Shown piece after piece: positions 6,860 to 9,352 of a stretch of DNA of 64,000 bases (position 1 is its first letter; each line of letters starts with the position of its first letter). The notes beneath the pieces are model-generated. The model did no database searches. It was given only the letters and a program-made list of their open reading frames with translations, and was not told the DNA's origin. Made by a program: the position numbers and the translations under genes. The DNA is from Escherichia coli (lineage in GTDB: Bacteria > Pseudomonadota > Gammaproteobacteria > Enterobacterales > Enterobacteriaceae). The DNA is taken from assembly GCF_048403405.1 (NCBI RefSeq), contig NZ_CP183129.1. The stretch is one strand, 5' to 3'.

Positions 6860-7753
6860 ATGGCAACGAATTTACGTGGCGTAATGGCCGCACTCCTGAC
6901 TCCTTTTGACCAACAACAAGCACTGGATAAAGCGAGTCTGCGCCGCCTGGTTCAGTTCAATATTCAGCAGGGCATCGACGGCTTATACGTGGGTGGTTCG
7001 ACCGGCGAAGCCTTTGTACAAAGCCTTTCCGAGCGTGAACAGGTACTGGAAATCGTCGCCGAAGAGGCGAAAGGCAAGATTAAACTTATCGCCCACGTCG
7101 GTTGCGTCAGCACCGCCGAAAGCCAACAACTTGCGGCATCGGCTAAACGTTATGGCTTCGATGCCGTCTCCGCCGTCACTCCGTTCTACTATCCTTTCAG
7201 CTTTGAAGAACACTGCGATCACTATCGGGCAATTATTGATTCGGCGGATGGTTTGCCGATGGTGGTGTACAACATTCCAGCCCTGAGTGGGGTAAAACTG
7301 ACCCTGGATCAGATCAACACACTTGTTACATTGCCTGGCGTAGGTGCGCTGAAACAGACCTCTGGCGATCTCTATCAGATGGAGCAGATCCGTCGTGAGC
7401 ATCCTGATCTGGTGCTCTATAACGGTTACGACGAAATCTTCGCCTCTGGTCTTCTGGCGGGCGCTGATGGTGGTATCGGTAGTACCTACAACATCATGGG
7501 CTGGCGTTATCAGGGCATTGTTAAGGCGCTGAAAGAAGGCGATATCCAGACCGCGCAGAAACTGCAAACTGAGTGCAATAAAGTCATTGATTTACTGATC
7601 AAAACGGGCGTATTCCGCGGCCTGAAAACGGTCCTGCATTATATGGATGTCGTTTCTGTGCCGCTGTGCCGCAAACCGTTTGGTCCGGTAGATGAAAAAT
7701 ATCTGCCAGAACTGAAGGCGCTGGCCCAGCAGTTGATGCAAGAGCGCGGGTGA
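6860..7753 (+). CDS. nanA: N-acetylneuraminate lyase
   Basis: 297-aa [23 protein letters not shown]...; DapA/NAL-family TIM-barrel lyase. Confidence 0.96.
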
Positions 7754-7861
7754 GTTTTTTCCCCTCGCTCGCCCCTACCGGGTGAGGGGAAATAAACGCA
7801 TCTGTACCCTACAATTTTCATACCAAAGCGTGTGGGCATCGCCCACCGCGGGAGACTCACA

Positions 7862-9352
7862 ATGAGTACTACAACCCAGAATATCCCGTGGTATCGCCAT
7901 CTCAACCGCGCACAATGGCGGGCATTTTCCGCTGCCTGGTTGGGATATCTGCTTGACGGTTTTGATTTCGTTTTAATCGCCCTGGTACTCACCGAAGTAC
8001 AAGGTGAATTCGGGCTGACGACGGTGCAGGCGGCAAGTCTGATCTCCGCAGCCTTTATCTCTCGCTGGTTCGGCGGCCTGATGCTCGGCGCTATGGGTGA
8101 CCGCTACGGGCGTCGTCTGGCAATGGTCACCAGCATCGTTCTCTTCTCGGCCGGGACGCTGGCCTGCGGCTTTGCGCCAGGCTACATCACCATGTTTATC
8201 GCTCGTCTGGTCATCGGCATGGGGATGGCGGGTGAATACGGTTCCAGCGCCACCTATGTCATTGAAAGCTGGCCAAAACATCTGCGTAATAAAGCCAGTG
8301 GTTTTCTGATTTCCGGCTTCTCTGTGGGGGCCGTCGTTGCCGCTCAGGTCTATAGCCTGGTGGTTCCGGTCTGGGGCTGGCGTGCGCTGTTCTTTATCGG
8401 CATTTTGCCAATCATCTTTGCTCTCTGGCTGCGTAAAAACATCCCGGAAGCGGAAGACTGGAAAGAGAAACATGCTGGTAAAGCACCAGTACGCACGATG
8501 GTAGATATTCTCTACCGTGGTGAACATCGCATTGCCAATATCGTAATGACACTGGCGGCGGCTACTGCGCTGTGGTTTTGCTTCGCCGGTAACCTGCAAA
8601 ATGCCGCGATCGTCGCTGTTCTTGGGCTGTTATGCGCCGCAATCTTTATCAGCTTTATGGTGCAAAGTACGGGCAAACGCTGGCCAACGGGCGTAATGCT
8701 GATGGTGGTCGTGTTGTTTGCTTTCCTCTACTCATGGCCGATTCAGGCGCTGCTGCCAACGTATCTGAAAACCGATCTGGCTTATAACCCGCATACTGTC
8801 GCCAATGTGCTGTTCTTTAGTGGCTTTGGCGCGGCGGTGGGATACTGCGTAGGTGGCTTCCTCGGTGACTGGCTGGGAACCCGCAAAGCGTACGTTTGTA
8901 GCCTGCTGGCCTCGCAGCTGCTGATTATTCCGGTATTTGCGATTGGCGGCGCAAACGTCTGGGTGCTCGGTCTGTTACTGTTCTTCCAGCAAATGCTTGG
9001 ACAAGGGATCGCCGGGATCTTACCGAAACTGATTGGCGGTTATTTCGATACCGACCAGCGTGCAGCGGGCCTGGGCTTTACCTACAACGTCGGCGCATTG
9101 GGCGGTGCACTGGCCCCAATCATCGGCGCGTTGATCGCTCAACGTCTGGATCTGGGTACTGCGCTGGCATCGCTCTCGTTCAGTCTGACATTTGTGGTGA
9201 TCCTGCTGATTGGTCTGGATATGCCTTCCCGCGTTCAGCGTTGGCTGCGCCCGGAAGCATTGCGTACTCATGACGCTATCGACGGCAAACCATTTAGCGG
9301 TGCCGTGCCATTTGGCCGCGCCAAAAACGATTTAGTCAAAACCAAAAGTTAA
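7862..9352 (+). CDS. nanT: Sialic acid:H+ symporter (MFS)
   Basis: Internal ATG at 7862 gives 496 aa [19 protein letters not shown]...; multiple TM segments; ORF track start 7832 is an upstream extension. Confidence 0.94.

Follow-up and report, generated by a model that had tools for sequence, protein, structure and literature searches.

Among the described systems closest to the one considered here is the malE-malF junction, where REP hairpins are said to stabilize the upstream malE mRNA, a finding credited to Newbury and colleagues in 1987. The nanA-nanT spacer of Escherichia coli resembles this junction in that a stable stem-loop without a U-tract, hereafter hairpin 1, separates the first cistron of a sugar-utilization operon from the second. 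Moreover, in Citrobacter, Salmonella, Enterobacter, and Lelliottia, the place of hairpin 1 behind nanA is taken by true REP/BIME sequences (GCCGGATAAGGCG...). The E. coli spacer differs in its sequence family, which is not of the GCCGGATG type, and in that stabilization of the nan message is a prediction. The REP consensus, an imperfect palindrome (GCCGGATG.. / ..CATCCGGC), was not found in the E. coli nanA-nanT spacer.

Box C is another family of repeats, present in about 30 copies in E. coli K-12. It was reportedly named by Bergler and coworkers in 1992 for a sequence in the envM/fabI region, and Bachellier and coworkers are said to have surveyed such repeats. One copy of the family lies upstream of K-12 fabI (envM), reportedly the place where the name was first given. 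Hairpin 1 has the arms CCCCTCGC.C and GGGTGAGGGGAAA and the G-U position of that unit, its flanking T-run and A-run have counterparts in units from other genera (L047), and it is intergenic and within an operon, like the flgG-flgH copies of E. coli 042. In contrast to a full unit, it lacks the inner CCCTCT(CCC)-N4-(GGG)AGAGGG hairpin and is single copy by BLAST. Box C is not known to be under selection as an mRNA structure, whereas hairpin 1 shows signs that it is.

Two further comparisons are useful. The small RNA Spot 42 reportedly causes discoordinate expression of the gal operon (galETKM), as described by Moller and coworkers in 2002, and it is said to repress sdhC from upstream of the ribosome binding site (RBS), as described by Desnoyers and Masse in 2012. 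The likeness to these systems concerns a candidate site that neighbors hairpin 1, and not hairpin 1 itself; it consists in the position of the region I pairing, which lies in a polycistronic message ahead of a promoter-distal cistron. Hairpin 1 resembles intrinsic terminators in that its stem is GC rich and immediately follows a stop codon, but its U-run is located on the 5' side, and there is none on the 3' side of either strand.

Layout of the nanA-nanT spacer

The window, by which we mean the whole 64,000-nt stretch of E. coli DNA that was analyzed, contains the nan region in the order nanR-nanATEK-nanQ. Its counterpart in K-12 MG1655, nanR-nanA-nanT-nanE-nanK-nanQ, is located on the minus strand, and MG1655 coordinates are obtained by subtracting the window position from 3380436. 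A 201-nt query across the hairpin region matched 5,408 of 5,426 complete E. coli genomes, with nanA and nanT as the annotated genes. The features of the spacer are compiled in Table 1. The K-12 RefSeq annotation has no feature within it, and Rfam covariance models yielded no match with an E value of 10 or less on either strand between positions 7000 and 8600. Our search of the literature for a nanA-nanT hairpin or terminator returned nothing relevant.

Table 1. Features in and around the nanA-nanT spacer, in window coordinates
Feature	Position	Strand	Details
nanA	6860-7753	+	Stop codon TGA at 7751-7753
nanA-nanT spacer	7754-7861		108 nt
Hairpin 1	7754-7797	+	18 pairs; loop CCCCUAC at 7772-7778; GC-rich core at 7761-7789
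Box C-type repeat remnant	7761-7792		Left arm CCCCTCGC(T)C; right arm GGGTGAGGGGAAA
Candidate Spot 42 (spf) pairing site	7801-7812	+	UCUGUACCCUAC; perfect complement of Spot 42 nt 1-12
A/U/C-rich linker	7813-7827	+	AAUUUUCAUACCAAA; unpaired in the centroid fold
Hairpin 2	7828-7849	+	GCG-U-GUGGGC-AUC-GCCCAC-CGC; abuts the nanT Shine-Dalgarno sequence
nanT Shine-Dalgarno sequence	7850-7854	+	GGGAG; start codon ATG at 7862-7864

Structure of hairpin 1

The first-pass annotation of this DNA had described an inverted repeat, TTCCCCTC-N17-GAGGGGAA, at positions 7759 to 7791. This repeat was confirmed; the window contains a single copy, and none of 100 shuffled sequences had one. Folding of both strands, which had been proposed as a check, resulted in a hairpin of -24.3 kcal/mol on the plus strand, corresponding to the mRNA sense, versus -18.6 kcal/mol on the minus strand. 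None of 200 shuffled sequences was equally stable (z = -4.8). The structure is larger than originally described, with five bases on each side of the supposed 17-nt loop forming pairs on the plus strand (G7771-C7779, C7770-G7780, U7769-G7781, C7768-G7782, and G7767-U7783, two of them G-U) and 7 nt remaining in the loop. The flanking U-run pairs with the A-run, leaving U7793 bulged, and G-C pairs make up 9 of the 18 pairs. Hairpin 1 begins 1 nt past the nanA stop codon, and its GC core begins 8 nt past it.

A T-run before the stem and an A-run after it had also been pointed out. Of these, the T-run does not hold as a general feature. The stretch of six T residues is strain specific and represents a minority allele, the sequence at 7755 to 7760 being TTGTTT in K-12 and most E. 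coli strains and TTCTTT in other Escherichia, and the A-run is interrupted (AAATAAA). A 53-nt query was at least 95% identical in all but 4 of 5,412 matching E. coli records and fully identical in only 185 of them. In the K-12 allele, the G at 7757 takes U7793 out of its bulge by pairing with it, and the fold reaches -26.8 kcal/mol.

Relationship to Box C-type repeats

The outer arms of the nan hairpin, CCCCTC(A/G)CCC ... GGGTGAGGGG, are those by which members of the Box C family are recognized. When the nan hairpin was aligned with the unit upstream of K-12 fabI (CCCCTCGCCCCTCTGGGGAGAGGGTTAGGGTGAGGGGAAAAGC), a unit from E. coli 042, and units from other genera, GGGTGAGGG was invariant in all six sequences. 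The nan hairpin and the fabI-upstream unit share both outer arms, the position of a G-U pair, and an A-rich right flank. The inner hairpin, CCCTCTCCC-N3-4-GGGAGAGGG (CCCTCT-N4-AGAGGG), is absent from the window and replaced by GCCCCTACC; the nan copy is therefore truncated or degenerate. Its flanks, tgaGTTTTT...CCCCTCACCC and GGGGTGAGGGG...AAACGCATC, align with the ends of a composite element in Pseudocitrobacter faecalis. Because of the arms shared with the fabI unit and the flanks that align with the ends of the P. faecalis element, hairpin 1 is, as judged by sequence comparison, a truncated copy of a known Box C-type intergenic repeat.

With a full Box C-type unit as the query, the family was found in up to 33 places in an E. 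coli genome, the median being 17; the nan copy is too diverged or too short to match other members of the family. The flgG-flgH spacer of E. coli 042 (L083, 1501-1616), which belongs to the Flag-2 flagellar operon, harbors an inverted pair of Box C-type units.

Conservation within Escherichia

The window was compared with representatives of six other Escherichia species. Divergence at four-fold sites, pooled for nanA and nanT, ranged from 15 to 27%. The 44 nt of hairpin 1 differed at 1 to 6 positions (2 to 14%; binomial P of 0.001 to 0.03 per lineage), and the other 64 nt of the spacer differed at 0 to 4 positions (P of 6e-8 to 4e-4). Hairpin 1 has diverged 2 to 9 times more slowly than the flanking four-fold sites, and part of this conservation could come from the neighboring constrained elements. 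The stem core was invariant in all eight aligned E. coli sequences, and only positions 7757 and 7819 (C/T) varied among the sampled divergent E. coli strains. Across the genus, the loop and the 3' arm are invariant, and the variation resides in the 5' arm.

Of the 18 pairs in hairpin 1, 12 are invariant in Escherichia, five have changed on one side, and one outer A-U pair has been lost. All five one-sided changes remain standard pairs on the plus strand (C-G to U-G, G-U to A-U, U-G to C-G, and U-A to U-G), whereas each of these states represents a C-A mismatch on the other strand. The fold of the plus strand was better than that of the minus strand by 2.4 to 9.2 kcal/mol in each of the seven Escherichia variants, because G-U pairs exist in the mRNA sense only. 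One-sided changes that preserve pairing on the plus strand alone, together with this strand bias, point to a constraint at the RNA level in the mRNA sense. No two-sided compensatory change was found inside hairpin 1; the support comes from wobble-only changes, which are few. On these few events, the comparison argues for purifying selection on hairpin 1 as an mRNA-sense structure.

The nanA-nanT junction in other genera

Folding predicted a single hairpin for 72 of 81 nanA-nanT spacers, with an energy of -10 kcal/mol or better and a start 1 to 33 nt past the nanA stop codon; in 63 of them, the energy was -15 kcal/mol or better. In most genera the hairpin starts 1 to 19 nt after the stop codon; in 8 of the 72 spacers it starts 26 to 33 nt downstream. 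Strong hairpins are missing from Trabulsiella, with spacers of 32 to 33 nt, from one Enterobacter strain, and from most Buttiauxella species. The hairpin is therefore not indispensable.

Across genera, the junction hairpins are built from unrelated sequences, which can be REP/BIME, Box C, or other. Units of the type CCCTCACCC..CCCTCTCCC-N4-GGGAGAGGG..GGGTGAGGGG follow nanA in Pseudocitrobacter, Kluyvera, and Enterobacter sp. kpr-6. REP/BIME sequences are found in the four genera named above, and other GC hairpins are found in Raoultella, Atlantibacter, Leclercia, and others. This pattern may indicate that a hairpin is wanted at the junction, or the spacer may merely be a permissive landing site for repeats.

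The spacer of Pseudocitrobacter vendiensis (L010, 3894-4298) is 403 nt long and contains four to five tandem Box C-like units of approximately 73 bp. This tandem expansion marks the junction as a hot spot for repeat expansion. An enterobacterial nanA-nanT locus nearly identical to that of Citrobacter sp. 18056 is present on a contig labeled Chryseobacterium sp. 18061, which probably reflects contamination or mislabeling of the assembly.

Complementarity of the spacer to Spot 42

Four nucleotides past hairpin 1, at -61 to -50 relative to the nanT AUG, the sequence UCUGUACCCUAC is complementary at all 12 positions, by Watson-Crick pairing, to nt 1 to 12 of Spot 42, its unstructured 5' end (GUAGGGUACAGA), the spf sequence being that of K-12. 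Pairing was scored by region-wise duplexes and opening energies; the full-length duplex was set aside since it implied unrealistic pairing all through. The duplex at this site amounted to -19.9 kcal/mol, with opening costs of 4 to 8 kcal/mol for the target and 3.5 kcal/mol for the small RNA, and its energy was reached by 2 of 2,000 shuffled sequences. A comparable complement to Spot 42 was sought at the nanT RBS, and none was found there. Located 50 to 61 nt upstream of the AUG, the site does not overlap the nanT RBS.

nanT is named as a Spot 42 target in passages of PMC3295665 and PMC12612679 that cite Beisel and Storz (2011) and Beisel et al. (2012). We refer to positions 7801 to 7812 as a candidate Spot 42 site, a term that does not imply identity with the published nanT pairing. 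As far as its sequence can tell, this site is most plausibly the element in the spacer that regulates nanT separately from nanA, and it had been overlooked by the first-pass annotation. The ..CCCUAC(A)A motif was also encountered elsewhere, with 11 of 12 pairs in Franconibacter, 10 pairs plus 1 G-U pair in Leclercia and Silvania, and further occurrences in Atlantibacter and Siccibacter. These five genera display the same order of elements, namely, a hairpin, a ..CCUAC(A)A site, an A-rich linker, hairpin 2, and the Shine-Dalgarno sequence.

The loop of hairpin 1 holds a second, 6-nt complement, CCCUAC (7773 to 7778), to Spot 42 nt 1 to 6 (GUAGGG). Opening of the loop costs 0.01 kcal/mol and the duplex contributes -9.9 kcal/mol, resulting in a net value of about -8 kcal/mol, comparable to what the main site reaches at its low end. 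The linker at 7813 to 7827 contains a match to the RNase E preference, AA↓UUU, and is a possible region of RNase E cleavage or Hfq contact.

Hairpin 2 and the nanT Shine-Dalgarno sequence

Hairpin 2 (-15.6 kcal/mol) ends directly at the Shine-Dalgarno sequence GGGAG, which is nearly invariant across genera. In 20 sequences from about 10 genera, its 6-bp core was paired in 98.3% of cells, compared to 35 to 41% for slid controls. Four of the six core pairs have changed on both sides (GC/AU, UA/CG, and CG/UA), a result that none of 500 shuffles matched. Hairpin 2 could act as a 5' stabilizer of processed nanT mRNA or as an insulator of the Shine-Dalgarno sequence. The Spot 42 site, which connects to known biology, and this covarying hairpin next to the Shine-Dalgarno sequence, which is absent from Rfam, constitute the more informative content of the interval.

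In E. coli AREA_499, approximately 12 nt around the nanT start codon are missing, equivalent to window positions of about 7855 to 7866. This strain reads GGGAGTACTTCAAC instead of GGGAGACTCACAATGAGTACTACAAC, and its annotation places the nanT start elsewhere.

Proposed role of hairpin 1 and alternative explanations

A stable, mRNA-sense stem-loop 3' of an upstream cistron and free of terminator features is what characterizes the class of stabilizing hairpins, and hairpin 1 has this combination. We tentatively favor, at somewhat less than an even chance, the view that it is a Box C-type remnant kept as an mRNA-sense intercistronic stem-loop, which would serve as a barrier to 3' exonucleases, or insulator, for nanA mRNA and would be coupled to Spot 42. 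RNA polymerase would read through hairpin 1, as its sequence suggests. Spot 42 with Hfq would then pair 4 nt past the stem and silence nanT from -61 to -50; the regulation as such is taken from the cited literature, and the mode of silencing might be a block of a standby site or enhancer, recruitment of Hfq, or RNase E cleavage in the AAUUUU linker. Where the downstream message is silenced, cleaved, or prematurely terminated, particularly after Spot 42/Hfq pairing, 3'-to-5' exonucleases would halt at hairpin 1 and leave a stable, translatable nanA mRNA. As a consequence, nanT, along with nanE, nanK, and nanQ, would be turned down without loss of NanA. We infer both the decay-barrier role and the coupling to Spot 42; the barrier reading takes the REP hairpins of malE-malF and the action of Spot 42 on the gal operon as its models.

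The suggestion of an RNA stability or processing element, one half of what the first-pass annotation had offered, is made plausible by the signs of purifying selection in the mRNA sense and by unrelated hairpins at the same position across Enterobacteriaceae. Against the barrier reading, an insertion preference of intergenic repeats for such spacers could explain the cross-genus pattern. In kind, the feature is real, conserved, and explained as a truncated known repeat that acts, if at all, as an intercistronic stability hairpin.

If hairpin 1 protects nanA mRNA, E. coli would keep its sialic-acid lyase while shutting off the transporter in catabolite repression. A Box C-type repeat would thereby have a function for the first time, and REP, Box C, and other hairpins would prove interchangeable at one operon junction. 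With three small elements in 108 nt, the spacer lends itself to compact tests of intercistronic control. Should the hairpin be without effect, it would simply be another remnant of an intergenic repeat.

The latter case, in which hairpin 1 would be a functionless Box C-type remnant that was inserted by chance and is tolerated by the mRNA, is unlikely but deserves serious consideration. The arms match a dispersed repeat family for which we know of no function. REP/BIME or tandem Box C sequences at the same place in other genera are what a permissive insertion site would display, and some genera do without the hairpin. What speaks against neutrality is the 2- to 9-fold slower divergence compared to flanking four-fold sites, the invariance of the core in the sampled E. 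coli strains, and one-sided stem changes that pair on the mRNA strand and break pairing on the other. Rather improbable is a broader version of the barrier reading in which the whole spacer would be a conserved control module composed of a protective hairpin, a Spot 42 site, an A-rich linker, and a covarying Shine-Dalgarno hairpin. Here, the Box C remnant would set the 3' end of a stable nanA-only mRNA once Spot 42/Hfq had silenced nanT, and the loop would provide a second dock for Spot 42. The spacer would then also exemplify how different repeat families are enlisted time and again for one intercistronic task.

REP elements within 15 nt of stop codons reportedly act as brakes on translation termination, according to work of Liang, Rudd, and Deutscher from 2015. 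Hairpin 1, with its stem starting 1 nt and its GC core 8 nt after the stop codon, and the hairpins of most genera, starting 1 to 19 nt after it, are placed accordingly. Such a brake would slow the terminating ribosome and lower the amount of NanA via stalling and tmRNA. However, the first seven pairs are weak A-U or G-U pairs, which a ribosome would easily unwind, and one positioned on the stop codon could therefore reach only 1 to 4 GC pairs. Together with the 8 of 72 strong hairpins that start 26 to 33 nt downstream, this makes a brake quite doubtful.

We consider it just as doubtful that hairpin 1 is part of a Spot 42/Hfq target module, the loop acting as a docking site or decoy and the stem keeping the main site from being sequestered by the nanA coding sequence. 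The CCCUAC in the loop is fully exposed, with a net duplex energy of about -8 kcal/mol, and neither the loop nor the 3' arm changes across Escherichia, in contrast to the 5' arm. Nevertheless, a match of six nucleotides could be due to chance, both sites use the same region of Spot 42, and in other genera that have the downstream site the hairpin loops are without the motif.

Terminator and promoter signals

Partial termination, the first option raised in the first-pass annotation, finds no backing in the sequence around the stem. Past the core, the plus strand reads AAAUAAAC, and past the full stem it reads GCAUCUGU; the minus strand reads AAAAAAC. Since the U-run precedes the stem and the A-run comes after it, on both strands, hairpin 1 is not an intrinsic terminator; it has the GC-rich hairpin of one but no U-rich tract immediately 3' of it. 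Likewise, none of the 72 strong hairpins in nanA-nanT spacers was followed by a U-rich tail, defined as at least four U residues in the next 8 nt. A scan for terminator and promoter consensus sequences made no call in the spacer, and TERMITe contains no nan entries. The curated Term-seq data of Adams et al. (2021; PMC7815308), obtained in LB and M63-glucose, list no 3' end at MG1655 33726xx, which is a weak negative because these media are noninducing for nan and the operon may be poorly expressed. Judged by these signals, hairpin 1 does not terminate transcription.

It is very improbable as a partial intrinsic terminator that would attenuate read-through from nanA to nanT: a strong GC-rich stem right after the stop codon might suit an operon in which the lyase may be needed in excess, but the missing U-tract on either strand, the lack of a scan call and of a curated Term-seq 3' end, the absence of U-rich tails at the homologous position, and the fact that no promoter of their own for nanT, nanE, nanK, and nanQ was detected in the spacer all argue against it. 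Least probable of all is a role of hairpin 1 at the DNA level, for instance as a cruciform or a protein-binding site, which would act on supercoiling or chromosome structure as BIMEs do in binding IHF and gyrase; hairpin 1 is an inverted repeat from a dispersed repeat family, but its substitutions amount to C-A mismatches in a cruciform or minus-strand fold and are kept as G-U pairs in the mRNA, which points to an RNA-level constraint.

A near-consensus -10 hexamer, TACAAT, at positions 7810 to 7815 was considered as an internal nanT promoter. It overlaps the end of the candidate Spot 42 site, has no matching -35 sequence, and lacks conservation beyond Escherichia; a promoter function is therefore improbable.

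The Term-seq data of Adams et al. (2021; PMC7815308) include a strong RNA 3' end that lies within the nanA open reading frame, 45 nt from its start, at MG1655 position 3373531 on the minus strand, corresponding to window position ~6905. Either premature termination or a 5'-derived RNA from the beginning of the nan operon may account for this end.
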